64,000 nucleotides of DNA, from the IMG/VR virus record IMGVR_UViG_3300018050_000401, positions 1,721-65,720 of that record; one strand, written 5' to 3'. The translations under genes and the position numbers were made by a program. Origin of the DNA: a virus. Under the pieces are notes generated by a model. That model was not told the DNA's origin. It made no database searches and saw only the letters and a list, made by a program, of their open reading frames with translations. Shown here piece after piece: positions 16,010-64,000 of the stretch (position 1 is the first letter of the stretch; every line of letters starts with the position of its first letter).

Positions 16010-16010
<1 letters not shown>
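14703..16010 (-). CDS. Fibre-like protein (435 aa) with N-terminal anchor motif and internal 14-aa tandem repeats
   Basis: N-terminus MARLNINIGTTANDKTGDPLRTAFDKVNQNFVEL. Repeats LFSGDYNDLTNLPT x3 are encoded by 42-nt tandem DNA repeats. Confidence 0.65.
15697..15822. repeat. 3 x 42-nt tandem direct repeat inside the 435-aa fibre gene
   Basis: Unit atttgttaaatcgttataatcaccactaaacaacgt(a/g)gg(g/a)ag repeated at 15697, 15739 and 15781, the third copy diverged. In frame, encoding the 14-aa peptide repeat. Confidence 0.8.
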
Positions 16011-28543
<12,533 letters not shown>

Positions 28544-35871: not shown

Positions 35872-35900
35872 ATTATAGCACCAAATATGTAGCATGTCAA
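35872..35900 (-). promoter_or_regulatory. Consensus sigma70-type promoter TTGACA-17-TATAAT
   Basis: Minus strand TTGACAtgctacatatttggtgcTATAAT, about 30 nt upstream of the RBS and ATG of the 399-aa gene. Confidence 0.7.
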
Positions 35901-37264
35901 TCGATGTTTTTACACTGATTATACAATTTGGTTAGCTCTGGAAAGGTTTCCAAAAAATTGGTGCCGCGTCTACGATCATGCTCATCAAAAAATAAACCAA
36001 AATCTTTTAAATGGACAACTTCTTTATTCTCTTTGATCAGGTATTGTATGCGTTCGAGCTTGTTTATTTCCCAATTTTGAAATCCTTTTCCATCGCAATG
36101 GTTCATTTTCATAAATTGAACTTGCTCTAACAGCATATCAATATACTCAACAGGAAGAATTCTAACACTCATCCATTTTGGATTATCCAGGTAAGGGATA
36201 TCTAAACCAATGGTCCTAGTTTCTTTATAAAATTTAAGTTTCATTATCAACACGTCTTTCAAAAATTCCATATAGGAAGTTATTGAAAGTGCATTATATG
36301 TTGACATGATACTGAAATTACCATCCGGCACTTCGTTCAAGTATCTGTGACAATTTTCTAGCCAAGTACTGTACACCATTCCGTTGCGTATGTATTCTGC
36401 TTTCTTACCATATGCCTCGGCACTGGTAAACAGAGTAAACTTTTTGACCATTTTGTTTTCTTGAATGATTTTAATCTTTTCAAGGAACTTATCAAACAGT
36501 TTATCGGGCAATACACAGTTACTATTAATAGCCAACTCAAGATTTGGATTTGGATTTTCAATAATATAATCGAGTACTTTGAATGTGTCTTTACTCATTA
36601 AAGGCTCGCCGCCTGTAATTCGGAAAGTATGTAGGGTAGCATAAACTTCAGGCCACCATTTCCAAAATGCTTCTACATAAGGGTTGTGTTCCTTTAATGG
36701 GATAGGCATTTTGTTTTGATACTTGGTATGTTCAAGATTGTTATACCCTAAACCAGTTGGGTATCCGCCAAACTTTTCAATTTCTTCCATCCACTTAGAG
36801 CTAATGTGCGGGCTGCAATAAGCACATTTAAAATTACAAGCATGGCTAAAACTGACTTCTAAGTAGGTAGGCTTGATATTTCTTTCCCATCCAGCATACA
36901 TTACATTAAAGTATTGGTCTTTCCCCGACCAGTCGTCTGTACTTTTGTAGACTCTGTCGCTGAAAATATCACTGTCTGGCGGGGCACTATCTTCAACTTG
37001 CCAGCAAAAATGACATTCTTCTGGCCGAGATCCTGTCATCATAAGTTTACGTTGTTCTTTTTTGAACTTGGTATTGTGTAATGCGCTAGGATCTTCCTGT
37101 ATTTCTTCTATAGGAATTTTATGTGTATTAGGGTGGTGACAACTATGGGTGTGGCCGTTTTGTAAATGTAGAGTGACCTGTAGCCATTTAGCAAGGCACA
37201 TGCCTGGGCCGGTTCTATCTAAGATTTGTTTTGCTTGTCTAAGCCAAATAACTTTATCGTTCAT
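35897..37264 (-). CDS. Radical SAM enzyme with N-terminal Cys-rich auxiliary domain (455 aa)
   Basis: SFSHACNFKCAYCSPHISSKW (CxxxCxxC) core and ITGGEPL glycine-rich SAM motif. N-terminal C..C....CxxC extension. Paralogous to the ORFs at 56613 and 58797, sharing the C-terminal F.ETFPEL motif. Confidence 0.75.
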   Translation of the reverse strand: MNDKVIWLRQAKQILDRTGPGMCLAKWLQVTLHLQNGHTHSCHHPNTHKIPIEEIQEDPSALHNTKFKKEQRKLMMTGSRPEECHFCWQVEDSAPPDSDIFSDRVYKSTDDWSGKDQYFNVMYAGWERNIKPTYLEVSFSHACNFKCAYCSPHISSKWMEEIEKFGGYPTGLGYNNLEHTKYQNKMPIPLKEHNPYVEAFWKWWPEVYATLHTFRITGGEPLMSKDTFKVLDYIIENPNPNLELAINSNCVLPDKLFDKFLEKIKIIQENKMVKKFTLFTSAEAYGKKAEYIRNGMVYSTWLENCHRYLNEVPDGNFSIMSTYNALSITSYMEFLKDVLIMKLKFYKETRTIGLDIPYLDNPKWMSVRILPVEYIDMLLEQVQFMKMNHCDGKGFQNWEINKLERIQYLIKENKEVVHLKDFGLFFDEHDRRRGTNFLETFPELTKLYNQCKNID

Positions 37265-37505: not shown

Positions 37506-38353
37506 AGACCGTGTCGGACTTTGATAAGACGAATCATCATGTCTTCATCTTCTTTTTCATAAGCCGCTTCAATCTTACGAAGTAGTTTGTGTGCTTTGTC
37601 GCTCATCTTTTTAAGTTCAGGAGTTTTATCTCCTCCCCAGCTTAGACGACCACCGTTGGCTAGTCGGCTTGCTTCGCAGTAAGCACTCCATCCACTTGCA
37701 TCATGTGGGTCTGGACGATTGCGATATACTTCAGTCCACCACTTGTACAAGTCTAAAATTTCTTGTGCCTTCTCTGCTTGTGGTGTGAGTTTACCTAGGT
37801 TATCTGAATCAGGGCCGACTTCATCTTCTTTCCAACGAAGTTGACGTTGCCATTCTAGATTATCTAGGCCAGCTTGCGGACAACGCCAAGTTCTCCAGCG
37901 GAACCAACCTGTAGCATACCAAGGTGCTTTGTATTTGTTCTTTTCGTCTGCATCTGCCCATGCAATGTGCCACCAAGCTAGTTCAACTTCAACAAAGTCG
38001 ACTAGTTCGTTAAAGAGACATGGGAGAAAGCGATTGCCAACATCGCGCCACTCACCACGAGGTATATCACGAGCATGAGCCGTAAGAGCATGGGTTTTAG
38101 TGACCCAGCGATTATTAACATAGTACTTGAGGCCATATAGTTTATCTGGAATATAAAAGACGATATTTTGAAGAATGTCTAAACCTTCTTCAGCAAGCCA
38201 CCACCGAACGGGATAAGCGGCCTTGGCCCTCTCTTCCCATTCTGCCCAGCCTTCACTAGTCTTAGCACCACCTTTGGTGGTACCTCGAAGCCAGTCGGCA
38301 AATTTTGAACATGTCCAGTAGTGGTTACGCATTTTAGTCTTTCTTACCGCCAA
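37496..38353 (-). CDS. Hypothetical Trp-rich protein (285 aa)
   Basis: Long ORF with a very high Trp/Arg content. No motif recognised. Confidence 0.5.
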   Translation of the reverse strand: MAVRKTKMRNHYWTCSKFADWLRGTTKGGAKTSEGWAEWEERAKAAYPVRWWLAEEGLDILQNIVFYIPDKLYGLKYYVNNRWVTKTHALTAHARDIPRGEWRDVGNRFLPCLFNELVDFVEVELAWWHIAWADADEKNKYKAPWYATGWFRWRTWRCPQAGLDNLEWQRQLRWKEDEVGPDSDNLGKLTPQAEKAQEILDLYKWWTEVYRNRPDPHDASGWSAYCEASRLANGGRLSWGGDKTPELKKMSDKAHKLLRKIEAAYEKEDEDMMIRLIKVRHGLWT

Positions 38354-39023
38354 ATAGTTGTAGCAAACTCAAGAACAAGTTAATGAAATCGAGATATAGT
38401 GTCAATGCACCCATTACCTCGGCCTTACCGTCATTGTCGTAACTGACCATTTCACGAATCTTTTGTGTGTCGTAAGCAGTCAATCCTAGGAAAATAATAA
38501 CAGCAATAGCTGAAATTACCATTTGCATTACAGTACTACCAATAAAGATATTGATAACACTGGCAATGATGATAGCAATCAAACCAATAAACATAAATTG
38601 GCCAACACTATCTAGATTCTTTTTGGTAAAGTATCCGTATCCACTCATAACGCCAAACAAAACTGCGGCACTCATGAACGCACTTACAATACTGCCCATG
38701 TTATAGACTACAAAAATTGTAGCAAAACTCAAACCCATTAGCGCAGCAAATCCGTGTAAAAAGATTTGTAAAGCACTTTTACTCATCTTTTCCATAGCAA
38801 CACTGACACCTAAAATTGCAACCAACGGTGCAAAAATTACAAGCCACTTCATTGCGCCGGTGAAAAAGAATTGCATCATAGTAGCATTAGTTCCTACTAA
38901 GAAACTAACAATCATCGAAGTAATAACGGCAAGACCCATGTGTCCGTAAACTCGACTCATTGCACTATTGATATCACTTGCTGAACGGTAAATTGCACCG
39001 CCTGTATAACTAGATCCAAACAT
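38334..39023 (-). CDS. Bax-inhibitor-1 / YccA family (TMBIM) 7-TM membrane protein
   Basis: INSAMSRVYGHMGLAVITSMIVSFLV resembles the YbhL/YccA N-terminal motif. About 7 hydrophobic helices with a charged C-terminal tail (GGKKD). Confidence 0.65.
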   Translation of the reverse strand: MFGSSYTGGAIYRSASDINSAMSRVYGHMGLAVITSMIVSFLVGTNATMMQFFFTGAMKWLVIFAPLVAILGVSVAMEKMSKSALQIFLHGFAALMGLSFATIFVVYNMGSIVSAFMSAAVLFGVMSGYGYFTKKNLDSVGQFMFIGLIAIIIASVINIFIGSTVMQMVISAIAVIIFLGLTAYDTQKIREMVSYDNDGKAEVMGALTLYLDFINLFLSLLQLFGGKKD

Positions 39024-42711: not shown

Positions 42712-43250
42712 GCAACCTTTTTATGTTCAACTTCTTCTGGTAACGGCAACCCGCCGTCTGGATCGTCATTGGGTCCATCGTCGTCATATAACTGACTTTG
42801 GAAGAATGTAAGTTGGTCAATCATTTGTTGACAACCTGCATGTGTCATTAGTATTTCACTGTAACCCATACTAAACGCAACTCGGTTATTATCGGTTAGA
42901 CCCAAGCGATAGAAAATCTTAGCAGGATCTTCCTTTTTAGGAGGCGTTACTTCAGGCATAGGAGGTACTGCTTTTGGCTTTGGAAGGTTGTAGACATTAC
43001 TTGCTTCGTCTGCGAATTCTTTAGCAGGCTTTTGTCTGAAAAAATTGAACATCTTTTGATCCCAGGTTACATCTAGGTTAATGGAACGCCCTAAAGGGGG
43101 AAACCAAAAGGGCATTGATAGAAAGAAAATATACAACGGTCCTGCCCACGTAAGATCTGCACCGTTGTAAATGCTGAACATTCCTACTACAAAGTAGGCG
43201 ACACTGATATAAAATATCCAGTGTCCGCCTGTTCTTTCGAACAATTTCAT
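42708..43250 (-). CDS. Membrane protein (180 aa), NfeD-like partner candidate of the SPFH protein
   Basis: Two N-terminal TM helices followed by a soluble acidic domain. Sits immediately beside the SPFH gene. Confidence 0.4.
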   Translation of the reverse strand: MKLFERTGGHWIFYISVAYFVVGMFSIYNGADLTWAGPLYIFFLSMPFWFPPLGRSINLDVTWDQKMFNFFRQKPAKEFADEASNVYNLPKPKAVPPMPEVTPPKKEDPAKIFYRLGLTDNNRVAFSMGYSEILMTHAGCQQMIDQLTFFQSQLYDDDGPNDDPDGGLPLPEEVEHKKVA

Positions 43251-44059
43251 TACTTGCCTACATTGACATTAGCGCCTGCGCCAATTACCAAAGTTTGACC
43301 TTTGAAACTAGCAATAGCATCTGCCACTCTCAATGCTGCATCGGCTTGTTTCATACGAGCTTGTGCATCCATATATTGAATAGCACTGGCATTGGTATTC
43401 AAAGCTGCAATACGACGAGCTTCTGCTTCGGCAGTCTTAACTTCGACTTCCTTTTGCTTGAGTTCGTTTTTAGCCTTAACCAAATCGTTAGCTGATGCTA
43501 CAACAGAGTCGGCCGGCACAATATTACGAATAAGGACCTGACCAATAACCAAACTGCCGTCTAGCTTTTCTTCAGCCAATGACTTTTGAATAGTTTCTTT
43601 AATTGCTTGTTCCATCGCCTGACGATTGTCTGCCATGTCCAGTGCTTCGTACTTACGAGCTTCTTTGTAGATAGCGTTACGAGTAGTTTGAACAATGTAG
43701 TTGTACATCAGATAAATGTCACCGTTGTTCCGAGCATGGAATGCCTGACTCTTTTGACTATAAAGTTCAGCAACCTGTGCCTGGTTAATGTTATAGATAA
43801 CTACAGCATCAAGTTCTTTCATTGTGCTATTATCTTTAGCAACAGGAGTCATGTCCTCCAATTTGACGTTAACGTCTTTGATTGGGAATGTAAGAACATC
43901 TCCGATAATAACTTGATTAAAACTACCAGGTAGCAATTCACCTTGCTGTACCTGTTTATCAAAGCCAACACGAACACCAACTTCACCGGTTTCGATACGA
44001 GTACAGCCAGTCATCAAAACAGCGCCAGCTAGAATACCAAGAGTTACAAGACGTTTCAT
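43250..44059 (-). CDS. SPFH/band-7 (prohibitin/HflK-C-like) lipoprotein
   Basis: Lipobox LMTGC. SPFH core with the characteristic Ala/Glu/Arg-rich coiled-coil (EVEVKTAEAEARRIAALNTNASAIQYMDAQARMKQADAAL). Confidence 0.75.
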   Translation of the reverse strand: MKRLVTLGILAGAVLMTGCTRIETGEVGVRVGFDKQVQQGELLPGSFNQVIIGDVLTFPIKDVNVKLEDMTPVAKDNSTMKELDAVVIYNINQAQVAELYSQKSQAFHARNNGDIYLMYNYIVQTTRNAIYKEARKYEALDMADNRQAMEQAIKETIQKSLAEEKLDGSLVIGQVLIRNIVPADSVVASANDLVKAKNELKQKEVEVKTAEAEARRIAALNTNASAIQYMDAQARMKQADAALRVADAIASFKGQTLVIGAGANVNVGK

Positions 44060-50410: not shown

Positions 50411-50629
50411 TTATAACCTATAAGTTACTCTACCTTTTGTAAGGTCATATGGGCTGACTTCTATCTTAACTTTGTCGCCTAGAATGATCCTAATCTTGTG
50501 CTGTTTTAACTTACCGCCCATGTAACAGAGTATAATTTGATTCATGTTATCAACCTTTACTCTAAACATGTTACCCGGTAGTACTTCGTCAACTGTGCCT
50601 GTGAGTTCTAAAATGTCGTCTTTAGCCAT
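50411..50629 (-). CDS. infA: Translation initiation factor IF-1 homolog (S1-like OB fold)
   Basis: MAKDDILELTGTVDEVLPGNMFRVKVDNMNQIILCYMGGKLKQHKIRIILGDKVKIEVSPYDLTKGRVTYRL aligns residue for residue with bacterial IF-1 (AKEDxIExxGxVxExLPNxMFRVxLENGHxVxAHISGKMRKxxIRILxGDKVxVExxPYDLxKGRI). Confidence 0.8.
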   Translation of the reverse strand: MAKDDILELTGTVDEVLPGNMFRVKVDNMNQIILCYMGGKLKQHKIRIILGDKVKIEVSPYDLTKGRVTYRL

Positions 50630-50807
50630 TCTTAGTTACTACGATTTTACCGTCCTCTAGTTTGATATCCAAAACGTCCCCTTCTTTCCATCCAGTAAGT
50701 TTTAATACTTCGTCTGGAAACTTCATCATGACATTTTCAGGATCTCCTGGGATTTCTTGAAAAATGTCTTCTGCTGTAAAAATGAATTTTTCGTTTTCTT
50801 GTTCCAT
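50622..50807 (-). CDS. Small protein (61 aa), possible swapped-hairpin/AbrB-like fold
   Basis: C-terminal ...KEGDVLDIKLEDGKIVVTKNG pattern. Weak assignment. Confidence 0.35.
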   Translation of the reverse strand: MEQENEKFIFTAEDIFQEIPGDPENVMMKFPDEVLKLTGWKEGDVLDIKLEDGKIVVTKNG

Positions 50808-51935: not shown

Positions 51936-52910
51936 ATGAGCTTTAACCAAATACCATTCGAACACATAGTCCGTTTTGGACAGCAGACTATGCTGGACAG
52001 ACCCTTGTTTTCAGTTAGTTGGATACTAGGTCGGTTTTGCAATTATAAATGTTCCTACTGCTGGCCCTATGCTAGAAGTGATCAATTAGATTATCAATCT
52101 CTAGATGTTTACAAGTATACAGTCGATGAGATAAAACGTCAAGCCCAAAATAACGGGTTTACAGAGTTCCATTGGAGCTTTAGCGGTGGCGAACCTACAG
52201 CATATAAAGAACTATTAGATTTGGTTAGATACCTTGAAACAGACAAACGAAGTACATACCAAAGTATCCACATGACTACAAATTTAAGTCCAGGATCTAA
52301 ATGGTGGAAAACTTGGTGCGATATCACATCAACTCTACAGCGCCGAAGCATTACTGCCAGCTATCACGCAGAGTTTGCTAAAGAACAAGAGTTTGGAGAT
52401 AAGTGCTTACAGTTAATGTATGAAAATGTTTTTGTTACTGTTAATCAAGTAATGGTTCCGGAAAAGTTTTATGAGCTATATGATCGTATGTCTAGGTTAC
52501 ATCAACGAGGCATTAATGTTACCTTGAAGCCGCAAAGCAACGAAACCGCTAGTGCTATTGTAGACGGTTATACAGAAGACATGATACACAAAATGCAAAC
52601 TGGTTTTCCGCAAACAGCACATAATGAAGAAGTGTACCAAATAAGACTTAACGACGGATTTAAAGATTATTATTTTGACCAAGCCGAAAGATTCAATGCT
52701 TTTGGATTTAATAAGTTTAAAGGTTGGACTTGCAATAGCGGCTATCAAAGTGTTATAATTAGAGGTAATGAAGTTAAACGTAGTTACAGTTGCCACGATG
52801 TACCGTTAGGAACTCTAAAAGACTTTACCTTGTTTAAGGAACCAGTTAAATGTATTACACCCAGTTGTGTCAGCTCGGCAGATAGTAAGATACCAAAATG
52901 TCGAGATTAA
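51936..52910 (+). CDS. Radical SAM enzyme with C-terminal SPASM-like domain (324 aa)
   Basis: ILGRFCNYKCSYCWPY CxxxCxxC. FSGGEPT. C-terminal KGWTCNSG...C...C..C...C SPASM/twitch-like cysteines. First gene of a plus-strand operon. Confidence 0.75.
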   Translation: MSFNQIPFEHIVRFGQQTMLDRPLFSVSWILGRFCNYKCSYCWPYARSDQLDYQSLDVYKYTVDEIKRQAQNNGFTEFHWSFSGGEPTAYKELLDLVRYLETDKRSTYQSIHMTTNLSPGSKWWKTWCDITSTLQRRSITASYHAEFAKEQEFGDKCLQLMYENVFVTVNQVMVPEKFYELYDRMSRLHQRGINVTLKPQSNETASAIVDGYTEDMIHKMQTGFPQTAHNEEVYQIRLNDGFKDYYFDQAERFNAFGFNKFKGWTCNSGYQSVIIRGNEVKRSYSCHDVPLGTLKDFTLFKEPVKCITPSCVSSADSKIPKCRD

Positions 52911-53563
52911 TTGTATTTGGATGCTCTATGTGTTACGGAGTTGGGTTACCTGATTGCTGGCCACCAACGTCTACACCTAGTAAGTTATGTTGGCCAGAAA
53001 TAGTTGCCAAAGCATTGGGATATCAGTGTGTAAACATGTCAGCATCTGGATCTGGTAACAAAGCAATTTGGTATAAGATTAAGAATTTTAAATTTGAGGA
53101 AGACGACCTTGTTTTGATTTTGTGGTCTTTTCCTAACAGGTATACACTAATAGAAGGACCTAACAACATAAAACATTTGCATCATAATAATTACGATGAG
53201 TTATCAGTTGCATATTATAATAACTTATACGACGAGTATGATTCCCAAGTGATGTCAGAGTTATTTGTTGACCATGCAAATTATATTTTGAATTCGAAGA
53301 AAGTAAATTTTTATCAAATGGCAGTTAAAAAGCGATATTGGAAAATGTTTAAAGATCACCGCTATCTAAAAATAACAATGGATGCGTATGAAACATTATA
53401 CCCAAGAGCACTAGACAACAGTCATGCAGGAATAGAAGGGCACAAAGCATTTTCTAAAGATTTGTTAGATATGCTTGGTTATAAAAATACTTTACCTAAA
53501 GTATCCCCTCCTAGATTTATAAACAAAATAAAACTTCCGTTATGGAAGTTATTCATTTGGTGA
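52898..53563 (+). CDS. SGNH/GDSL-like hydrolase-fold protein (221 aa)
   Basis: Block I-like IVFGCSMCYG, GSGN (block III-like), DNSHAGIEGH (DxxH-like). Divergent from canonical GDSL. Confidence 0.4.
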   Translation: MSRLIVFGCSMCYGVGLPDCWPPTSTPSKLCWPEIVAKALGYQCVNMSASGSGNKAIWYKIKNFKFEEDDLVLILWSFPNRYTLIEGPNNIKHLHHNNYDELSVAYYNNLYDEYDSQVMSELFVDHANYILNSKKVNFYQMAVKKRYWKMFKDHRYLKITMDAYETLYPRALDNSHAGIEGHKAFSKDLLDMLGYKNTLPKVSPPRFINKIKLPLWKLFIW

Positions 53564-53566
53564 CGT

Positions 53567-54169
53567 ATGAACATTGACCTAGATCATTTACATCATTGGA
53601 TGTGTGCTATTAGAGAAAGCAAAGATCCTATGAGAACATTAGATGCGTTCTGGAGCGGCCAGATACGCAGTAAAGAATGGCTGATTTCGGAACTACAACG
53701 GCTTAGATGCCACGTTGACGACTGGCCTTCTGTAGATATTCATGGAGGATGGGTTGGTGTACTTGCCAGTATGTTATTTCAAAGCAACCTTTACATTAAA
53801 AATATAAGAAGCATTGATATTGATCCTACGTGCGAACCTGTCGCTAACCGTATGAATCAACTTGAACTAGAAACAGGTAAGTTCAGAGCAGTGACAGCTG
53901 ACATGTGTTCTATCCGAAGCGATGCAGATATTGTAATTAATACTAGTTGCGAACATATTACACAAGATGAGTTTGACCTATGGAAGAGCGGTTTGCCACA
54001 AAACAGTCTTTTAATTTTACAGGGTAACAATTATAGTATACCAGAACATAAAAGAATTTCCAGTTCATTAGATGATTTTAAAACTCAGTGCAATTTAGAT
54101 AATGTTTGGTATGCAGGCAAATTAGAATTGCCTTCTTATACACGCTTTATGGTAATTGGTAAAAAATAA
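53567..54169 (+). CDS. Class I SAM-dependent methyltransferase-like protein (200 aa)
   Basis: Motif I-like VDIHGGWVGVLASML, motif II/III-like IDIDP...ADIVINTSCEH. Confidence 0.5.
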   Translation: MNIDLDHLHHWMCAIRESKDPMRTLDAFWSGQIRSKEWLISELQRLRCHVDDWPSVDIHGGWVGVLASMLFQSNLYIKNIRSIDIDPTCEPVANRMNQLELETGKFRAVTADMCSIRSDADIVINTSCEHITQDEFDLWKSGLPQNSLLILQGNNYSIPEHKRISSSLDDFKTQCNLDNVWYAGKLELPSYTRFMVIGKK

Positions 54170-55218
54170 TGTATCAAGTAACTGCCGTACATATTGAATT
54201 AACTGACAAGTGCCAGGCCGCATGTCCAATGTGTGCTAGGAATCACAACGGCGGCAGTGAACGACCTTTTATTAAGAATACAGAAATTACATTTGATAAT
54301 TTTAAACAATGGTTCCCAACTTCGTTCCTTTCTAAATTAAACAATTTTTATAGTTGCGGAAACTACGGTGATCCTGCATTTGCTACAGACTGTTTTGAAA
54401 TATATGACTATGTTAGAAATGCAAGTCCTACTGCTAGGTTAGCCATGCATACTAACGGTAGTTTAAGAAAGTCACAGTGGTGGGCAGACTTGGCAAAAGT
54501 AATGGGACAAAATGGAGAAGTTATCTTTGCTGTTGACGGATTTAAAGGAAAGCACGAATTATACAGGCGCCACACGGACTTTGACAAAATAATTGAAAAT
54601 ATAAAAGCGTATGTCGGTGCTGGCGGAATTGCTAGAGTTGATAGTTTAATTTTTAAACACAATGAATCAGATGTTGAACAGTTAGAAAATTTTTTATTAG
54701 AACTGGGTGTAAAGTCTGTTAACTTTAAAAGCACAAAAAGATTCTACAACATGGATTCTTTTCCTGTGTACAATCGAGACAATACGTTTGCATATAATAT
54801 CTATCCTGCAGAAACACCTAATTTTAAACAAGAAGTAAAGATTCCTTTAGAAAACTTTTTAGACAAATCTTTTACAAAAAAAGTTATGGAGGAATCGTTA
54901 ATTAATCCACAATGTGTTAATAAACAAGAAATTTATGTTGACCCGCATGGTAACATATTACCGTGTTGTTATATTGGAAGTGATTATCTAGAACAGCCGT
55001 TAGAAGAAAAAATGGTTATACAGACACTTAGAAATATAACAGTTAACAATTCTAAACAAATGATGAACGCCATCGGTGTCCCTAATCTACATAATGCAAA
55101 TATAGAAGAACTACTAAGTCAACCAGGACTATGGGAAGATTTAGAAAATTATTGGACTGGAAAAGACAAATGTATGACCTGTGTTAAAACTTGTTCTAGT
55201 CAGCTTTACGATCTATAA
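54169..55218 (+). CDS. Radical SAM enzyme with SPASM domain (349 aa)
   Basis: LTDKCQAACPMCAR CxxxCxxC. C-terminal PCCYIGSD...CMTCVKTC SPASM-type cysteines. Confidence 0.75.
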   Translation: MYQVTAVHIELTDKCQAACPMCARNHNGGSERPFIKNTEITFDNFKQWFPTSFLSKLNNFYSCGNYGDPAFATDCFEIYDYVRNASPTARLAMHTNGSLRKSQWWADLAKVMGQNGEVIFAVDGFKGKHELYRRHTDFDKIIENIKAYVGAGGIARVDSLIFKHNESDVEQLENFLLELGVKSVNFKSTKRFYNMDSFPVYNRDNTFAYNIYPAETPNFKQEVKIPLENFLDKSFTKKVMEESLINPQCVNKQEIYVDPHGNILPCCYIGSDYLEQPLEEKMVIQTLRNITVNNSKQMMNAIGVPNLHNANIEELLSQPGLWEDLENYWTGKDKCMTCVKTCSSQLYDL

Positions 55219-55942
55219 ATTTCAGCCATCCAAATTTTTCAAACAGTCTTGCATACCAATAAAACAAATCAAACTCAAACCATTTAATTCCAACATTTGC
55301 TCTATTAGGATATACATGGTGGTTGCTGTGCAGTTCAGCCATACCTCCAAAATAAATTCCTAACGGAAACATATTAAATGATCTATCAGGATATTTGTTT
55401 CCTTCGTGTCGATACAGGCCAACTTTATGTGGTAGCCATGCACTTAGTAATACAAGGCCTACTTTGTCGGAAAACCACATAAGCATTGGCGCAACTACTA
55501 AGCCTATCCACCCAAACAACATGCCATATATTAACGAAATCAAAACTATTCCGCCATACGGATATTTTGAATAGACATTGCGTTGCATCCAGTCATCGTA
55601 TATAGGAACATCTGGTGCATGGTCTAGATGTGTATTTGGATCAACCCTTTTAAAATACGGATTGTGATTAGCGTTGAATAGGCCCTTTAATGAAATATGA
55701 TAAGGAGAATGACTATCATTTTCCGAATCGCTGTTTTTATGATGTAGTCTGTGTGTACCAGCAGACATCCTTAACCATTGCGGCCAAGTACCCCACCGGA
55801 TAGTCCAAAGTATAAATCTACAAACATGTTCAAAGCCAGGTGACACTTTAAGATATCCGTGAGAATAGCCTCTATGTACTAACATATCCATAGTGAGAAC
55901 TATGATGTGAAAATTTAACAAATAAAAAAAGAATAATTCCAT
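55196..55942 (-). CDS. Membrane di-iron fatty-acid desaturase/hydroxylase-family protein (248 aa)
   Basis: Three His boxes: HRGYSHGY, HRLHHKNSD, HSNHHVYPNRAN. Several TM helices. Confidence 0.6.
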   Translation of the reverse strand: MELFFFYLLNFHIIVLTMDMLVHRGYSHGYLKVSPGFEHVCRFILWTIRWGTWPQWLRMSAGTHRLHHKNSDSENDSHSPYHISLKGLFNANHNPYFKRVDPNTHLDHAPDVPIYDDWMQRNVYSKYPYGGIVLISLIYGMLFGWIGLVVAPMLMWFSDKVGLVLLSAWLPHKVGLYRHEGNKYPDRSFNMFPLGIYFGGMAELHSNHHVYPNRANVGIKWFEFDLFYWYARLFEKFGWLKFIDRKAD

Positions 55943-56619
55943 TATAGTTTTTCAACTTCTAAATTAATGCCGCATTGCTTTATAGACTCAACTGCTTCAT
56001 CAAAGATACTAAAAATGTTTGTGTTCACTAATATTTCCTTTTCGCTTAGTCCTTTAAAACCTGTAATTTCTTTATTTTTTACAGCAGGATTAATAATACG
56101 CATTATTGGTGTATAAGCTAATTGTTTCCAGTTGTAATCTCCGTCAAGCACTTTGATCCTTAGTCCAGCGTTTAATGGATTGTACTTAGGAAGCAACACT
56201 CTAATATTTAAGTGTACTCGTGTGCTTGCACCCCAATTTGCCGCCACATGAATTTTGCCAGTGTCCATGTGCCATATTTCTCCTGTTGCTGGTATATGAT
56301 GAAGATGATTATCTGTGATACTGACTAGGTATGCATATGGATTAGTGATAATAGGCAAGTGTATTCTGTCATCGGGGTCGCAATGTGCTGTATAACTTTC
56401 CCCAGAGTCTAATGATAGCAATCGTGCTTGTCCAATATTTTCTAAAGAATCCAGTACATCGCCCAAAGGAGTATTTTTAAATTCAGCTTTAGTTAACCAT
56501 GGGTCGTTAAAGAATTGCCCAGTGCAAGTATTAAGTTCAAGTCTCTTAAATACGCCAAGAGATTTAACTTGTTCAACAATAGGATCGATATTAAATTTTT
56601 TATCTAATAGTGTTAGCAT
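55942..56619 (-). CDS. Aspartyl/asparaginyl beta-hydroxylase-like cupin (2OG/Fe(II) oxygenase family), 225 aa
   Basis: SYTAHCDPDDRIHLPI (HxD) ...GEIWHMDTGKIHVAANWGASTRVHL matches the AspH-domain facial triad and W.G..fD...H.a.N.s...R pattern. Confidence 0.6.
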   Translation of the reverse strand: MLTLLDKKFNIDPIVEQVKSLGVFKRLELNTCTGQFFNDPWLTKAEFKNTPLGDVLDSLENIGQARLLSLDSGESYTAHCDPDDRIHLPIITNPYAYLVSITDNHLHHIPATGEIWHMDTGKIHVAANWGASTRVHLNIRVLLPKYNPLNAGLRIKVLDGDYNWKQLAYTPIMRIINPAVKNKEITGFKGLSEKEILVNTNIFSIFDEAVESIKQCGINLEVEKL

Positions 56620-58040
56620 AATAAATGCGCCAGTTCAGGAAACACTTTTTTAAAATCTGTATTACGTTGCTGGTCTAAAGCTGTAATGTACTCTTGGAAA
56701 TCGGGAAGCAAGTTTGTGTGATCCTCTGAGTCCATCCAATCTAAAATCCCTTCCCATCGTTTCCATCCGTAAGGGTCAGTATTCCAAAAATGTTCATCAG
56801 TTCTATAGTTTTCTTTTAGCCAAGATTTAAGTTCGACAAATAACCGGCGAACTTCTTCTTTATCTTTTTTAGGTAGTACTCTTAAACTTAACCAAGTAGG
56901 TATCCATACTAAGTGAGCACTAAAGATTCCTCCGCTATGTGTTTCGCCTAGAATGTTATCGTCTAAATTAATTCTTTTAAACCCACTAGTAACTTTCCAC
57001 TTTATAAATTCTGGAATATGTTTAATATTTAATATTTGCACAGCGCAGGCAATGGTAGTTTCTATATTTGATGGTGCGTTGTCAAGTATTGTTAGATTTT
57101 TTACAATAGTATCCCAGTCTGCTGGATATCGGATATAGTGTAATCGTTCACCTATACCATCAATGCTAAACCCATACTTAACTTTTCTAAAGTGTTTCCA
57201 TGTCTCAATGATAGAAGGATCAATTAATATTCCGTTGCTATTATATCGTAGTTCTATTTTAGCGGCATACCCTTGTTTTATAATTTCTTGTAGGAATGTT
57301 TTGTGTTCCTTAATCATTAAAGGTTCGCCACCGGCAAAGTATATTTGTTTAATGTTAGGAATCTGTTCGTATATCTCTTCCCAGAATGCCGGGTTCTCGT
57401 GCCAGCGATTATCAAATCCTGTACGTTGCCAACTAAGTTGCTTTTTAATCAACGGGCTTTGAAAAAGCGGATAAATCTTTTTGTGGTCTTCAACCCACTT
57501 ACTACTATCGTGTGGGCTACACATTACACACTTTAAATTGCAGGTATTGCCTAGTCGTAAATCAATATACTGTAACTTATAAGGAACATAGCCATCTTCT
57601 TGTGTTTGTGATATTAACGCAGGAATGTCTATTCCATGCTTGTGCCATGTGCCAGTTTCCCATATTCTTTTACTGACAACACCGTTGCTTTCTTCTTCAA
57701 AACACTTTTTACAACTTGCGGGAACATTCCCATCGAGCATGGTAGTTCGAACACTACGCATATACTCGTTGTTGAAAGCTTCGCTAGGTAAATCTTTTCC
57801 AAAGTTAGCCGGATCACCGTTTTCTTTTTTAACGAGTCCTACAGTATAGTTTCCGTCTTCTGCACCACTAGCATTGGCTACACAACAGATACGCATATCA
57901 CCGTTTGGGCGTGTTGCTAAATGTATCCACGGTAATACACAAAAACTGGCACTACCAGACACATCTTTGATTTGTTTCTGCCAAGTTCCTATCTGTGTGG
58001 ATTCAGGTTGCATCCAAAATACTGTTTGAGTATTGTCCAT
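56613..58040 (-). CDS. Radical SAM enzyme with N-terminal Cys-rich auxiliary domain (475 aa)
   Basis: RLGNTCNLKCVMCSPHDSSKW, FAGGEPL. N-terminal C...CC...CxxC. Paralog of 35897..37264 and 58797..60032. Confidence 0.75.
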   Translation of the reverse strand: MDNTQTVFWMQPESTQIGTWQKQIKDVSGSASFCVLPWIHLATRPNGDMRICCVANASGAEDGNYTVGLVKKENGDPANFGKDLPSEAFNNEYMRSVRTTMLDGNVPASCKKCFEEESNGVVSKRIWETGTWHKHGIDIPALISQTQEDGYVPYKLQYIDLRLGNTCNLKCVMCSPHDSSKWVEDHKKIYPLFQSPLIKKQLSWQRTGFDNRWHENPAFWEEIYEQIPNIKQIYFAGGEPLMIKEHKTFLQEIIKQGYAAKIELRYNSNGILIDPSIIETWKHFRKVKYGFSIDGIGERLHYIRYPADWDTIVKNLTILDNAPSNIETTIACAVQILNIKHIPEFIKWKVTSGFKRINLDDNILGETHSGGIFSAHLVWIPTWLSLRVLPKKDKEEVRRLFVELKSWLKENYRTDEHFWNTDPYGWKRWEGILDWMDSEDHTNLLPDFQEYITALDQQRNTDFKKVFPELAHLLC

Positions 58041-58078
58041 GAAATATTTATATGCTACTATTATGTAGTAAATATATC

Positions 58079-58786
58079 ATGATTATCCCATTCGAGTCTA
58101 ATTGGAAAAATGTAGCTATCAGTGTAAGTGGCGGTGCGGACTCCGCATTATTGGCATATCTAGTTTGCGAACAAGCCTACGAGCATGACACTACAATTCA
58201 TATTATTAACCATGTGCGTATGTGGAAGACACGCCCGTGGCAACAATATGATGCCGACCGTGTATATAAATGGTTGTTCCAAAGATTCTATCATACAAAT
58301 TTTAAACGCCATACTAACTTTATTGCACCGGATATCGAGTACGGTAATATTGGCCCTAATTTAACCGACGAGTACGGTAAGAAGGTCAGTGGTGATAATA
58401 TACAACAACGAGCATATGGAGAGTTTATTTGTAACAAGTATAATATAGATGCTTACTACAATGCTGTTACTCGAAATCCAAGACTGGCATCTTTCAATGG
58501 TATGCGCGAGCGCGATATTGATCCGAATGAAGATAACAAACACTTAGAAAGAATGACACACATGGGTGTAGAAGTTTTACATCCTTTTAGATTTATTGAC
58601 AAATCTGAAATTGTTAAAAAATATAAAGAATTAAACTTAATGGATTTATTTGAAATAACTCGCAGTTGTGAGGGCGAGTTCGATGGTATTGATTATACAA
58701 CGTATAAGCCAGGACAGGTTGTTCCCATATGCGGTGAATGCTTCTGGTGCAAGGAACGAGAGTGGGCAATTGAACAATCAAAGTAA
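58079..58786 (+). CDS. PP-loop ATP pyrophosphatase, QueC-like (N-type ATP-PPase with C-terminal Cys cluster)
   Basis: PP-loop SGGADS (VAISVSGGADSALLAYL). C-terminal SCEG...PICGECFWCKER (Cx2Cx2C), similar to QueC zinc-site spacing. Start at the internal Met preferred over 58052. Confidence 0.6.
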   Translation: MIIPFESNWKNVAISVSGGADSALLAYLVCEQAYEHDTTIHIINHVRMWKTRPWQQYDADRVYKWLFQRFYHTNFKRHTNFIAPDIEYGNIGPNLTDEYGKKVSGDNIQQRAYGEFICNKYNIDAYYNAVTRNPRLASFNGMRERDIDPNEDNKHLERMTHMGVEVLHPFRFIDKSEIVKKYKELNLMDLFEITRSCEGEFDGIDYTTYKPGQVVPICGECFWCKEREWAIEQSK

Positions 58787-58796
58787 AACATTTTGT

Positions 58797-60032
58797 ATGC
58801 ATCCTTTTACAGGACTAGCAACTAGAGAAGATGGGGCTATCAAAGCCTGCTGTCGTAGCCATCCTGTTGGGTTTATTGATAAAGAAAGTTTGGAAGAAAT
58901 TTGGAACAACGACACTATGAAGCGTATTCGTCAACAAGTGTTGAACAATGAAAGACCTCCGGAGTGTGAACCTTGTTTTAATTTAGAAGATCAAGGAGTA
59001 GTGAGTTTACGACAACGTCACGTAGAGGCACGTATACCAGAGGCACGTATTAATCTATACCCAACTGCGTTGAACAACCTTAACAGTGATTATTCAATGC
59101 CTTTTGAAATTCCAACAATGGAGTTAAAGTTAAACAACTTGTGTAATTTGAAATGTCGTATGTGCCACCCCGGAGACAGCACTAGCTGGAATGATTGGGA
59201 TCAAGTAGAAGATTTCTATAAAAAAGATAACAACATTATATTTCATTTAGTTGAAGATAATAATTTAAAAAACAAACCGTTCCTTGATAAGTTTCAAGAT
59301 AACCCAGCATGGTGGACAAGTTTAGAAAAACTGTTACCATATTTTCGTCGTGTAGAATTTGCCGGAGGAGAACCTCTGATGGATCCCCAACACTATCGTA
59401 TTTTAGATATGCTAAGTCCTTACGGCAATCAGATTGAAATCAAGTATGCTACTAACCTAAGTATGTTAGGAAAGAGCAATAGAACAATTTGGGAGTACTG
59501 GCCTAAATTTAAATCTGTTGCAGTTAACATAAGTATTGATGGAATTGATGAAAGCTACGAATATATTCGAGGCAACGCCAGTTGGACAGAGTTGATTGAT
59601 AATATTAAAAAGATACAAACTATTCCTAACATAAGCAGAATTGTTGGTGCGGTTACTGTACAAGTTAGTAATGTTCTTGTGCTAGATAAAATTATCAAAT
59701 ATTTCTTAGATGATATTGGCATTGTTTTTCATTCGCATAGGGTAGAGTTTCCAAGAGAATTATCTGCTCAAGTGTTGCCACCAAAATTAACAGCGTTGGC
59801 CATACAGCGATTGCAGGAAGTCAGTTACCATGTTAAAGATTTTAAAATGGTCAAACAACATCCTCAACTTTTAAAATACACCTTGGATCAGATACAAGAC
59901 AACATTAACTATCTACAAGCAAGGGATCAAAGTCATAGATGGAGCGATTGTGTAGAATTTAATCGTAGGCTAGATCAAACTCGAAATCAAAGTTTTACCA
60001 ATGTAACTCCGGAGTTTAAATCGTATGTTTAA
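58797..60032 (+). CDS. Radical SAM enzyme with N-terminal Cys-rich domain (third paralog), about 411-420 aa
   Basis: KLNNLCNLKCRMCHPGDSTSW, FAGGEPLM. N-terminal CC...CxxC. The ORF is open from 58668 and overlaps the upstream gene. ATG 58797 or an upstream TTG 58770, which retains the first Cys, are possible starts. Confidence 0.7.
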   Translation: MHPFTGLATREDGAIKACCRSHPVGFIDKESLEEIWNNDTMKRIRQQVLNNERPPECEPCFNLEDQGVVSLRQRHVEARIPEARINLYPTALNNLNSDYSMPFEIPTMELKLNNLCNLKCRMCHPGDSTSWNDWDQVEDFYKKDNNIIFHLVEDNNLKNKPFLDKFQDNPAWWTSLEKLLPYFRRVEFAGGEPLMDPQHYRILDMLSPYGNQIEIKYATNLSMLGKSNRTIWEYWPKFKSVAVNISIDGIDESYEYIRGNASWTELIDNIKKIQTIPNISRIVGAVTVQVSNVLVLDKIIKYFLDDIGIVFHSHRVEFPRELSAQVLPPKLTALAIQRLQEVSYHVKDFKMVKQHPQLLKYTLDQIQDNINYLQARDQSHRWSDCVEFNRRLDQTRNQSFTNVTPEFKSYV

Positions 60033-60912
60033 AGTAACAAGTCGTTGGCCTCACCAAGATAGTATCAAGGTTGAATGGAATCTTGGCAAGAGATGTAATT
60101 ACGATTGTAGCTATTGCCCTTCAGTTATACATGACAATTCTAGCCCTCACACAGATATTGAAGTCTTAAAAAAGACCATAGACAAATTACAAACTTTAGG
60201 CAAGCCAATACGTTTAAGTTTTACAGGTGGGGAACCTTGTGTGCATCCTAAGTTCGACGAGCTTATAAAATACGCAAAGTACAAAGGAGTTGCATGGATT
60301 AGTGTAACAACTAACGGAACTAGACCTTATGAGTTTTATGCCAGTTTACCAATTGACCAATGTGTTGTTAGTATACATTTAGAATACGACTGGCGCCGTG
60401 TGTTCAATACTATAGAAAGTCTTGTTGATTTGACAAAAATAAAAGTATTAGCACAAATAATGGCCCATCATGATTATATGGATGCTGTGATGCAGTTACG
60501 TGCTCGATGCCTTCAAGCACAAATTCCAAACACTGTTAGGCGCATACGATGGACTGAAGGTGATCACGATTTATTTGATGATATGCGTTATCATCCAGAC
60601 GACCTTGCATGGATAAAAGAACAAGATGCTACTATTTCAGGAAACTGCGTAATTGACGATAAGGAAATTATTCATGCCAACGATGTTATTAAACTTCATT
60701 TGAATAAATTTAAAGATTGGAGTTGTAATGCTGGCATTGAAAGTTTAATGATTAACTGGGATGGTGAGGTACATCGTGCAACTTGTAGAGTTGGTGGTAG
60801 TCTAGGAAATATATACCAAGGAACTTTTACACCAACAGAAGATCCTATTATATGCACAAGAAACTTCTGTACATGTTCTTCGGATATTCCTATTACTAAA
60901 CTTTCTCCTTAG
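60025..60912 (+). CDS. Radical SAM enzyme with C-terminal SPASM-like domain (295 aa)
   Basis: LGKRCNYDCSYCPS, FTGGEPC, TTNGT. C-terminal KDWSCNAG...C...C..C.C cysteines. Paralog of 51936 and 60896. Confidence 0.75.
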   Translation: MFKVTSRWPHQDSIKVEWNLGKRCNYDCSYCPSVIHDNSSPHTDIEVLKKTIDKLQTLGKPIRLSFTGGEPCVHPKFDELIKYAKYKGVAWISVTTNGTRPYEFYASLPIDQCVVSIHLEYDWRRVFNTIESLVDLTKIKVLAQIMAHHDYMDAVMQLRARCLQAQIPNTVRRIRWTEGDHDLFDDMRYHPDDLAWIKEQDATISGNCVIDDKEIIHANDVIKLHLNKFKDWSCNAGIESLMINWDGEVHRATCRVGGSLGNIYQGTFTPTEDPIICTRNFCTCSSDIPITKLSP

Positions 60913-61906
60913 TTAAATTTACTTCGGTAACGCAGAGGCAATTAGCTTGATTACAGATTACCGACTTAATCTCTGGACAAAAGTTTTCTTTAAAATTAAT
61001 ATCGTATAAATTGTAGTGGTACTTTTCGCCATACAGCAGTTGTCCGCAAGTACCAGATACTGTTCCGTCAACATTAATAAACAACCTATCCACTCCAATG
61101 TTGCATGACCAACCTTTAAAATGATTCCAGTCATTTAGCATTGCTTCGTTGGACTGAAGTTTTCGTTTATTTCCGTCAACGAATGTTGCAGTTGGTTCTT
61201 TTTGATAGTAGTATGATTTAAATATATTTTTTAACAAATACAACCAGTTTCCTTTTCTAACTAGAGAATTTGTTTTGATAAATTCTGCTTGTTCGTCTGT
61301 ATAAGTAATTTTTCTTTTACTGTTATCTTCTAAACTTTGTAAATTGATTGCCCACGTATGTTTGCTAGTTTTTAATTGTTCGATGGCCTCGGTGCACTGA
61401 ATCCAGTAATCAGGATCCATCATAACTAGTCCTGTAACTACTATGTTGTTTTCATACAGCGCATCCGCAACAGATATGAAGTGATCTATGTTTGTTTCTT
61501 GTATGTGAAAACTCAGAACAACTTGATCAAAGTATTTTGAATTTTCCTTCCACCAATCTAATGTTCTTGATCCGTTGGATACAATCATTATTGAAACATT
61601 GTGATGTAATTTTAGTTTTGAACAAAACTCTGGAAGGTGCTTCCACAGCGTAGGTTCTCCGCCTAATAAGCTAATTTCAAACTTCTTCTTTCTTGAATGT
61701 TCTTTATAATAATCTAACAAGTGTATAAGATTATCGGATACTTTGATCCAATCTTCTTTGAATCGTTTTGTGCCGTCATTGCAACCATCAAAACAATAGT
61801 TACATTTATAATTGCATACATTTGAAACCATGTATGCAATATTAAGTATATCTCTATAATTGCTTACTAGTTTTATCGGTTCTGATAACATCAATGATTC
61901 GTCCAA
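60896..61906 (-). CDS. Radical SAM enzyme with C-terminal SPASM-like domain (336 aa)
   Basis: VSNVCNYKCNYCFDGC, LLGGEPT. C-terminal KGWSCNIG...C...C..C..C.C cysteines. Confidence 0.75.
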   Translation of the reverse strand: MDESLMLSEPIKLVSNYRDILNIAYMVSNVCNYKCNYCFDGCNDGTKRFKEDWIKVSDNLIHLLDYYKEHSRKKKFEISLLGGEPTLWKHLPEFCSKLKLHHNVSIMIVSNGSRTLDWWKENSKYFDQVVLSFHIQETNIDHFISVADALYENNIVVTGLVMMDPDYWIQCTEAIEQLKTSKHTWAINLQSLEDNSKRKITYTDEQAEFIKTNSLVRKGNWLYLLKNIFKSYYYQKEPTATFVDGNKRKLQSNEAMLNDWNHFKGWSCNIGVDRLFINVDGTVSGTCGQLLYGEKYHYNLYDINFKENFCPEIKSVICNQANCLCVTEVNLTKEKV

Positions 61907-62645
61907 TTAAATCCCATTCCCACCATTGCTCTCCAGCTCTATAGTTCTGTGGGTTAGCATGGTGATTGTTATGCCAACCGTCGCCCATACTAAAAATATT
62001 TGCTATCCAACTGTTAGTACTCAGGTCTCTAGTTTCGTAACTTCTATAACCGTGTACATGCCCAAGAACGTTAACAATGCCCACAAGTAAGATAGTTGCA
62101 CTCATAGGTATAGCATAGGCAAATAACACTAATATAGGGTTGATTAGAAATAACAAGAATATGTAAGCTATTAAAAGTTTAAAGTAATTGTCAAAGATAA
62201 ATTTATGTACAGGGTTTCGTAATAAATCTTTTACAAGAAATGGTGTTAGTTTATGCATCTTCCAACCGTAGCCTATCCAAACTTGTAGTCCTCGTAAGAT
62301 AGAAAACTTTCTGTTAATGTTTGGACTATGTGGATCATCATCTGTATCTGTCTTGGCATGATGTATTCTGTGTGTACTTACCCAGGACATAGTAGGCCCA
62401 ACTGTTGATATAACACTTATTAACGATAGTAGTGTTTCTGTTGTTTTGTTAACTTTAAAACTTCTATGTGTTAGCAGTCTATGTAGGGTGAGTACTTGAC
62501 TAATTGGTCCAACAAAAAACCACACTACTGACGAAATTAATAGTAGATAGTATTGGCCAGTTTGCATAATGTATGCAACTCCACATAAACTTAACAAATG
62601 ACCTATAGTCTGAAACACTCTAATTTTTAAATTTAGATTCATAGT
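61854..62645 (-). CDS. Membrane fatty-acid desaturase-family protein (about 263 aa)
   Basis: His boxes HRLLTHRSF, HRIHHAKTDTDDDPHSP, HNNHHANPQNYR. Multiple TM helices. Start chosen at the internal Met MNLNLK to limit overlap. Confidence 0.6.
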   Translation of the reverse strand, partial: TMNLNLKIRVFQTIGHLLSLCGVAYIMQTGQYYLLLISSVVWFFVGPISQVLTLHRLLTHRSFKVNKTTETLLSLISVISTVGPTMSWVSTHRIHHAKTDTDDDPHSPNINRKFSILRGLQVWIGYGWKMHKLTPFLVKDLLRNPVHKFIFDNYFKLLIAYIFLLFLINPILVLFAYAIPMSATILLVGIVNVLGHVHGYRSYETRDLSTNSWIANIFSMGDGWHNNHHANPQNYRAGEQWWEWDLIGRIIDVIRTDKTSKQL

Positions 62646-63259
62646 CCGGGCTCCAACTGCAACCACTCCTTGTGTGTAATTAATTTAGGTTTCCATTGTT
62701 CAGTAATAACACCTGAAACTTTTTCATGATAAACAAAATTTTGCCAGCACTTTTGTACATTCCAAGGAGCAGTTTGTATATAGCCACCTCCGTTAGTATA
62801 CGTTCCTTCGCTAGCAATCAACATGTGCTTAACAAATACTCTATCCCACCATCCTTTACTTTCTTTTTTATCTCTGTTTTGCATTGTAAGAATATAACCG
62901 TCAAAGTTATTTACTGCTTCTAATGCTTTCATTAAACTGTAAGTGACTCTAAACCCGTCAGTCATGTCTCTCGGCGTCATTCTAAATTCTGGAAATGTAA
63001 ACCCCCTGTGAACGATGTTTGCAACATTATGTGGATATCGTTCGTCGTGATATACACCCCCCATTACCATAGGTTTACCTGTACTTGTTTGGTATACAAC
63101 ACCAAAGCCTTTGTGCTTTTCAACAACAAGTTTGTCTTTAGTATAGTTTGCACCTAACCAATTTCCTTCAGCAAGTACAATGTCACGCACATCTTCAAAC
63201 TCTGAACAAGACTCATAGTAAATTTTAATGTGTGTGTTTGATAAATCGTACCTATCCAT
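62639..63259 (-). CDS. Hypothetical protein (206 aa)
   Basis: Long ORF within the accessory operon. No motif recognised. Confidence 0.45.
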   Translation of the reverse strand: MDRYDLSNTHIKIYYESCSEFEDVRDIVLAEGNWLGANYTKDKLVVEKHKGFGVVYQTSTGKPMVMGGVYHDERYPHNVANIVHRGFTFPEFRMTPRDMTDGFRVTYSLMKALEAVNNFDGYILTMQNRDKKESKGWWDRVFVKHMLIASEGTYTNGGGYIQTAPWNVQKCWQNFVYHEKVSGVITEQWKPKLITHKEWLQLEPGL

Positions 63260-63831: not shown

Positions 63832-64000
63832 AAAGTGTCTCAGCAATAGGATATTTACATAATTACTGTATGTCCAAAAAATTTCATAGCTTACTGTTCT
63901 CTATAAACGACTCTAATAACTTTAGGGGAACGGGCGCACATCGTATAGCTCACGTGCTACGCCAAGAAGGTTGGGATTGTGAAGTTGTGGACTTTGTTTT

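Follow-up and report, generated by a model that had tools for sequence, protein, structure and literature searches.

A 64,000-nucleotide stretch of viral DNA (IMG/VR record IMGVR_UViG_3300018050_000401, positions 1,721 to 65,720 of that record), referred to throughout as the window, carries three genes for radical S-adenosylmethionine (SAM) proteins, here designated A, B and C. As judged from their sequences, all three products belong to a family that NCBIfam already lists as NF033640 (N_Twi_rSAM), "twitch domain-containing radical SAM protein". The reading that we favour, with moderate confidence, is that A, B and C are ancient NF033640 paralogs that would perform radical tailoring of a carbohydrate-type substrate, the cluster of the twitch domain serving as electron acceptor. 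The three genes are the following.

35897..37264, minus strand: paralog A, 455 amino acids (aa), A-type, outside the gene island described below; AlphaFold2 (AF2) model with a predicted local distance difference test score (pLDDT) of 86.2 and a predicted template modelling score (pTM) of 0.87

56613..58040, minus strand: paralog B, 475 aa, B-type; AF2 model with pLDDT 84.5 and pTM 0.85

58770..60032, plus strand: paralog C, 420 aa counted from TTG 58770, C-type

Family membership was established by an NCBIfam profile scan, in which A, B and C scored 336.8, 409.5 and 325.1 bits against NF033640. These scores are about twice the curated cutoff of 170 bits, and the corresponding E-values (1.8e-100, 1.5e-122 and 6.5e-97) lie far beyond chance. 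The matches cover positions 3-398 (A), 2-397 (B) and 6-397 (C) of a profile of 398 positions, so that an existing curated family already takes in both the Cys-rich N-terminal module and the C-terminal motif. We found no structural difference between the three proteins and that family, the definition of which takes in neither phage membership nor a context of multiple radical SAM genes. Sequence alignment showed A, B and C to be homologous over their full length, with pairwise identities of 24-27% (A-B), 17-20% (A-C) and 30% (B-C). With a profile of the three proteins, 4,348 clusters at 50% identity were recovered at E ≤ 1e-30; many of the top cluster matches are 600-1,400 aa long and contain two to three family-length matches, representing tandem fusions of up to 1,413 aa. 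Comparisons with the PDB returned no solved structure with the NF033640 architecture, and a literature search for "twitch domain-containing radical SAM" yielded papers on canonical enzymes only.

The positions of the relevant motifs in the three genes are listed below; residue numbers are those of the respective proteins.

37004..37198, minus strand: twitch module of A, C23-x13-G37-x4-C42, gap 41, C84-x2-C87

57702..57941, minus strand: twitch module of B, C34-x12-G47-x4-C52(C53), gap 57, C110-x2-C113

58794..58976, plus strand: twitch module of C, C9-x12-G22-x4-C27(C28), gap 38, C66-x2-C69

36815..36838, minus strand: radical-SAM motif of A, CNFKCAYC, with C143/C147/C150; GGEP at 218

57519..57542, minus strand: radical-SAM motif of B, CNLKCVMC, with C167/C171/C174; GGEP at 237

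59142..59165, plus strand: radical-SAM motif of C, CNLKCRMC, with C125/C129/C132; GGEP at 199

35936..35977, minus strand: C-terminal motif of A, DRRRGTNFLETFPE, residues 430-443

56634..56675, minus strand: C-terminal motif of B, DQQRNTDFKKVFPE, residues 456-469

59973..60014, plus strand: C-terminal motif of C, degenerate, DQTRNQSFTNVTPE, residues 402-415

The first-pass annotation of the window had proposed that the three open reading frames share an N-terminal Cys module, a CX3CX2C motif, GGEP and a C-terminal motif, and a check of exact positions bears this out. C, the most divergent of the copies, departs from the strings quoted there as common to all three, having CHPGDSTSW in place of CSPH.SSKW and TPE in place of FPE. 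Across A, B and C, the consensus of the C-terminal motif is DxxRx3Fx4(F/T)PE, of which D456, R459 and P468 (B numbering) are 85-89% conserved. The radical SAM core was recognized by Pfam PF04055 in all three proteins (A 31.8, B 50.9 and C 37.8 bits; gathering threshold 29.5), and GGEP is invariant among the family members compared.

Whether the N-terminal Cys align among the copies had also been raised as a check. They do: the four positions are conserved in A, B, C and their relatives, being invariant in 30 diverse members and conserved in 97-98% of 181 non-identical members, next to 99-100% for the radical-SAM Cys. B differs by an insert of approximately 22 residues after the CC pair. In 162 of the 181 members, CX9-15GX4C and then CxxC precede the radical-SAM motif. 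None of these 162 has the full SPASM string CX2CX5CX3C, the second half of the SPASM motif (CX5CX3C...C) being absent from all of them. No further conserved Cys were found. Because this second half is absent, one auxiliary cluster would be expected, not two. Around C42, A-type proteins display a His-rich signature, G-x-T-H-S-C-H-H-P-x2-H (window positions 37120..37150, residues ~39-48), which is absent from the B- and C-types and could be an extra metal or substrate site.

The twitch motif also bears on the extent of gene C. The start of the third open reading frame at ATG 58797, as first annotated, is not tenable, since the codon of the first twitch Cys (tgt 58794) lies directly upstream. An in-frame TTG at 58770 yields a protein of 420 aa beginning with MNNQSKTFCMHPF, in line with called orthologs of 418-437 aa and with a homolog beginning with MENNSKTFCMHPF. 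With this start, the gene overlaps the stop end of the preceding PP-loop gene by 17 nt. From these sequence features, TTG 58770 is probably the true start of C, not ATG 58797.

The SPASM/twitch signature has been described as CX9-15GX4C-gap-CX2C (PMC6231123), and the domains that carry it as C-terminal extensions of radical SAM enzymes (PMC9012708). A, B and C contain this signature, and in each of them the module precedes the core. As SPASM/twitch domains are described as C-terminal, the N-terminal placement is atypical. The earlier proposal that such a module is uncommon therefore holds with respect to position and fails with respect to frequency, given the 4,348 clusters recovered. The companion proposal that the module is an auxiliary Fe-S-type domain agrees with four lines of evidence: the signature, Pfam SPASM, alignment to BtrN and AF2 topology. 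Pfam SPASM (PF13186) matched the N-terminus of C with 33.3 bits (cutoff 21.5) and that of B with 17.3 bits, below cutoff. Positions 20-90 of the family profile align to residues 166-239 of BtrN, its twitch region (E = 0.004). In the predicted models of A and B, the order of elements is Cys, β-hairpin, Cys, helices and CxxC. Strands 29-33 and 38-40 of A lie between the first two twitch Cys; in B, strands 40-43 and 48-50 lie between C34 and C52, followed by a helix at 92-102 and by C110 at the start of a helix at 108-118. A hairpin combined with an α2' helix is the canonical topology of BtrN and SkfB (PMC6231123), and the predicted modules of A and B match that description. On motif and model evidence, the module is a genuine twitch domain in an atypical position.

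A characterized enzyme with a comparable module is BtrN (PDB 4M7T), a twitch radical SAM dehydrogenase of butirosin biosynthesis. Both have the same fully ligating four-Cys signature and the same layout, with one Cys before the β-hairpin, one after it and a CxxC after a helix, BtrN holding one auxiliary [4Fe-4S] cluster. That cluster is ligated by four Cys and has been proposed to act as an oxidant of the substrate radical and not as a substrate binder (PMC6231123, PMC9012708); with four Cys available, the auxiliary cluster of A, B and C should likewise be fully ligated. With anSME and other SPASM enzymes (PF13186), the three proteins share the first half of a seven-Cys motif, and they differ from these enzymes in having four Cys only and an N-terminal domain. 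The best structural neighbours include the sugar-acting twitch enzymes BlsE and AprD4. In the case of the cytosylglucuronate decarboxylase BlsE (PDB 7VOB; 18% identity), the core alone aligns, so this likeness provides no evidence of shared chemistry.

In the mechanism that we propose, the CX3CX2C motif of the partial TIM-barrel core would hold the SAM-cleaving [4Fe-4S] cluster, the four invariant twitch Cys would fully ligate a second [4Fe-4S] cluster, and a C-terminal helical bundle of ~85 residues containing DxxRx3Fx4(F/T)PE would complete the fold. By analogy with BtrN and anSME, SAM would be reductively cleaved to generate a 5'-deoxyadenosyl radical that abstracts a substrate hydrogen, after which the fully ligated twitch cluster would accept or relay an electron from the substrate radical, without binding the substrate directly. 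A twitch domain normally closes the lateral opening between edge strands β6 and β1 of the partial barrel. We infer that a domain joined ahead of β1 could take up the position of one that follows β6, which would make the arrangement a variant resembling a circular permutation and not a new kind of domain.

Each of the three paralogs has closer relatives in cellular genomes than in the other two. A shares 52% identity with a gene of the isolate Bdellovibrio sp. HCB2-146, and B the same percentage with Bdellovibrionales genes; for C, identity to a Pseudobdellovibrionaceae gene amounts to 37%. A neighbour-joining tree of 181 sequences, which is distance-based, carries no support values and is biased in sampling to the B-type, puts A, B and C into three separate clades, each with cellular members. 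The initial proposal of an expansion within the phage lineage is contradicted by these clades and by mutual identities of 17-30%, against 52%, 52% and 37% to cellular genes. On this sequence comparison, the copies diverged long ago, and the phage has a single member of each of three subtypes. A-type and B-type genes also occur together in Bdellovibrio sp. HCB2-146, ~2.4 kb apart, and the divergent B/C pair is kept in distant phage contigs. Cellular loci contain two to seven family copies per 17 kb. One locus, on a Bdellovibrionales chromosome (L081, 282..11874), has eight consecutive N_Twi_rSAM genes in tandem, seven of them with overlapping stops and starts.

One could still suppose that the Cys-rich region is a previously unrecognised N-terminal Fe-S extension and that the family expanded in this phage lineage, as three copies within one 64 kb window and a placement atypical for SPASM/twitch domains (PMC9012708) would suggest. 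The architecture, however, is already curated over its whole length with thousands of members, the copies belong to separate deep clades with cellular members, and the arrays found in cells are larger, with up to eight tandem copies. We therefore regard this explanation as very improbable.

Genome matches to the B-type numbered 301, most of them in Bdellovibrionota; an isolate with a contig of 2.2 Mb is among the genomes matched. Since the genome scan was built on alignment patterns of the B-type, this taxonomic picture holds for the B-type only. Homologs of B are 69-98% identical among the 120 matches listed. A has a cluster of 100% identity (P0121), exact copies being found in freshwater-type metagenome assemblies. 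Its closest cultured relative is gene 349 of Ralstonia phage RsoM2USA (40% identity); Pfam gave no match for the RsoM2USA neighbours of this ortholog, and a megablast search of the region around A against GenBank phages gave none either. Matches at 42-47% identity in metagenome-assembled genomes (MAGs) assigned to the candidate phyla radiation, Rickettsiales, Chloroflexota and Acidimicrobiaceae call for the caution about misbinned phage contigs that is raised below.

Among other phages, predicted viral structures that share the full-length fold are common and include KVP40 Q6WHP4 and phi-pp2 I6XCF1. These proteins, annotated as "MoaA/NifB/PqqE family", are 22-24% identical to the window proteins, and the reports on them describe neither a function nor an N-terminal twitch domain. 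The cultured, KVP40-like Vibrio phage K566 (L092) has several radical SAM genes, 22-24% identical to A/B, at 161.5-170.3 kb, in a cluster close to NAMPT and to a gene annotated as PagP. Twelve radical SAM genes are present in a T4-like environmental genome of 183 kb (PMC5332604); it resembles the present phage in their number, and function and an N-terminal twitch domain are not described there. A literature search combining jumbo phage or Bdellovibrio with radical SAM returned nothing on the gene cassette to which B and C belong.

This cassette forms a conserved island that consists of the following features in addition to B and C.

51936..63846, mixed strands: conserved multi-radical-SAM island, running past the window end

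51936..52910: radical SAM gene

53567..54169: class-I-methyltransferase-like gene, a label from motif reading alone

54169..55218: radical SAM gene with a canonical C-terminal SPASM/twitch motif, CX11GX4C(C) and then CxxCxxxC

55196..55942: desaturase-like gene of the membrane fatty-acid type

55942..56619: AspH-like cupin, Asp/Asn β-hydroxylase family

58052..58786, plus strand: PP-loop ATP pyrophosphatase, QueC/TilS-like, with a C-terminal CxxCxxC, between B and C

60025..60912: radical SAM gene

60896..61906: radical SAM gene

61854..62666: desaturase-like gene of the membrane fatty-acid type

63259..63846: short-chain dehydrogenase/reductase (SDR)-like gene

The C-terminal motif of the gene at 54169..55218 indicates that enzymes with an N-terminal twitch and enzymes with a C-terminal SPASM/twitch domain coexist in one cassette. 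Transcription of B diverges from that of the PP-loop gene and C, and the PP-loop gene is a conserved companion, being 71% identical in another phage contig, L006. The desaturase-like genes gave DesA-family matches of 125 and 101 bits (cutoff 400); membrane genes of this kind are unusual phage cargo. When the methyltransferase-like and PP-loop companions were searched against PDB sequences, no match was obtained.

Past its last feature listed (63846..64000 and further), the island continues outside the window; a metagenome contig with identical genes (L093, 1..5300) adds radical SAM proteins of 497 aa and 439+ aa with an N-terminal B12-binding-like domain (class-B-like) and a SPASM-type radical SAM protein of 356 aa. 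The phage region thus includes at least 11 radical SAM genes, A being counted. The island has a lower G+C content, 0.345-0.37 against ~0.40. Many contigs of 240-390 kb carry the cassette, which is present in a clade of environmental jumbo phages that is widespread, and B has the same gene neighbours in phage contigs L002-L006. Identity between the window and L006 is 67-80% for island genes and 36-60% for adjacent non-island genes; this higher identity of the island indicates that it is a conserved module under selection rather than a variable region.

Copy A had been placed about 15 kb outside the island, and the measured distance is 14.7 kb. It lies in a replication/structural block with the order DNA ligase, MazG, Bax1-I, a 278 aa protein, a 77 aa protein, A, a 399 aa protein, a tail-fibre-like protein and PTPS. 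This block is conserved, as the same neighbours are found in contigs in which A is only 57% identical. The phage nature of the window is apparent from an open reading frame of 4,175 aa and from PHROG matches to virion, tail-fibre, DNA ligase and endonuclease proteins; the window is environmental jumbo phage DNA. Outside the island, the following features were recorded.

16010..28537, minus strand: single open reading frame of 4,175 aa

32474..33007: PTPS/QueD-like gene, ~3 kb from A

38334..39023: Bax inhibitor-1 family membrane protein, Pfam Bax1-I on an identical gene

43250..44059: SPFH/Band 7 protein

At 50.4-50.8 kb, a 72 aa open reading frame (50411..50629) is IF-1-like, the equivalent gene of L006 carrying Pfam eIF-1a, and it overlaps a 61 aa open reading frame (50622..50807) with an AbrB/MazE-type look.

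The substrate class is suggested by the cellular loci. Companions of cellular B-type genes include radical SAM genes of the 51936 type (~48% identity), SPASM radical SAM genes of the 54169 type and a gene of the 53567 type. In Bdellovibrio sp. HCB2-146 (L023), five family 2 glycosyltransferase (GT2) genes lie around the A-type and B-type genes. The eight tandem copies of L081 adjoin genes for an AsnB-type amidotransferase, for a GT2 and for a UDP-Glc/GDP-Man dehydrogenase, and a Bacteriovoracaceae chromosome (L047) shows an ArnT-like transferase, a large GT2 and an SDR. Homologs of the L023 GT2 genes were detected in 21 of the 92 sequences searched (91 loci and the window). The position of the cellular arrays among glycosyltransferase and sugar-nucleotide genes favours a carbohydrate-type substrate. 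The paralogs are non-redundant, each from a deep subfamily, and each would be responsible for one tailoring step. B and C are fixed members of a cassette that, together with the PP-loop protein, the methyltransferase-like protein, the cupin hydroxylase, the desaturase-like proteins and the SDR, may perform successive radical steps, such as oxidation, epimerisation, dehydration or decarboxylation, with a sugar, a sugar-nucleotide or a glycan as substrate.

The same glycan context bears on a second explanation, namely that the island and A, B and C modify a peptide of ribosomal origin, or a protein of the phage or its host, with chemistry like that of ribosomally made peptides altered after translation (RiPPs) or of proteusins, by radical epimerisation or cross-linking, B12-dependent C-methylation and β-hydroxylation. 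Many SPASM/twitch radical SAM enzymes are indeed RiPP maturases (PMC9012708). Most of the weak NCBIfam matches are peptide maturases, and the island has an AspH-family cupin along with the two radical SAM genes with a B12-binding-like N-terminal domain. Polytheonamide-type clusters have the same mix of enzymes. NCBIfam and Pfam, on the other hand, revealed no RiPP recognition element (RRE) or other peptide-binding domain in A, B and C (no profile-profile RRE search was made), and the gap at 50.4-50.8 kb holds the IF-1-like and AbrB/MazE-like open reading frames instead of a precursor, for which no systematic search was made. As the cellular arrays moreover lie among glycosyltransferases and sugar-nucleotide enzymes, we consider peptide or protein tailoring unlikely.

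Modification of nucleotides or of phage DNA, either 7-deazapurine-like or by another hypermodification, would account for the QueC/TilS-like PP-loop gene between B and C, for the PTPS/QueD gene ~3 kb from A and for weak matches of the small radical SAM genes of the island to QueE models, and jumbo phages often hypermodify their DNA (PMC10516641). The QueD and QueC-like genes are, however, 25 kb apart, the QueE matches reach 37 bits against a cutoff of 206, and the window showed no FolE or DpdA/TGT-like gene, no search aimed at FolE and DpdA having been made. Furthermore, the homologous cellular cassettes are found in glycan loci and not in loci for nucleic-acid modification. The explanation is accordingly improbable. 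With scores this far below cutoff, a QueE/7-deazaguanine identity of the small radical SAM genes was rejected, and none of the window genes scanned was recognised as a radical SAM gene of QueE grade.

The two membrane fatty-acid-desaturase-like genes of the island raise the further question of whether the enzymes act on lipids or on the acyl chains of lipid A or lipopolysaccharide in the host envelope. The AspH family, to which the cupin belongs, includes the lipid A hydroxylase LpxO. The desaturase-like genes, however, are not among the companions recovered in cellular loci, and matches to lipid-acting radical SAM enzymes are generic and confined to the core, BlsE, MoaA and anSME scoring the same. 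We give a lipid substrate a low probability, comparable to that of a nucleic acid.

A role as prokaryotic viperin (pVip) was also considered and rejected, NF038283 scoring 20-30 bits against a cutoff of 180. PADLOC matches to pVip were likewise restricted to the core (27-38 bits); as this similarity is generic to the viperin core, a reading in terms of defence or counter-defence was rejected.

Several observations nevertheless weigh against radical tailoring of a carbohydrate-type substrate by A, B and C. Neither the phage island nor its vicinity shows a glycosyltransferase. Peptide tailoring would be an equally good fit for the AspH-like hydroxylase and the radical SAM genes with a B12 domain, lipid tailoring would suit the desaturase-like genes, and the QueC-like and QueD genes hint at nucleotide chemistry. 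Some of the MAG contigs are probably misbinned phage, for example a 4.9 kb "Crocinitomicaceae" contig (L012) that is 72% identical to B. Finally, the family has no characterised member, and a literature search for NF033640, N_Twi_rSAM and N-terminal twitch or SPASM domains found no paper.

Taken on its own, the Cys-rich extension is ordinary, being explained by a catalogued family. What is of interest is that a large family without a characterised member is represented by several deep paralogs inside a cassette that comprises at least 11 radical SAM genes and is strongly conserved in many environmental jumbo phages, and that the cellular counterparts sit in glycan loci of predatory bacteria. 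RsoM2USA gene 349 and the members in Bdellovibrio sp. HCB2-146 provide experimental entry points. More speculatively, and in our estimation unlikely, the proteins with an N-terminal twitch domain might constitute a circularly permuted BtrN-like class with undescribed chemistry, the cassette building or remodelling a heavily tailored glycan or metabolite. If so, both jumbo phages and Bdellovibrionota might apply the product to the envelope of their Gram-negative hosts or prey, where it could serve, for example, in exclusion, camouflage or entry.

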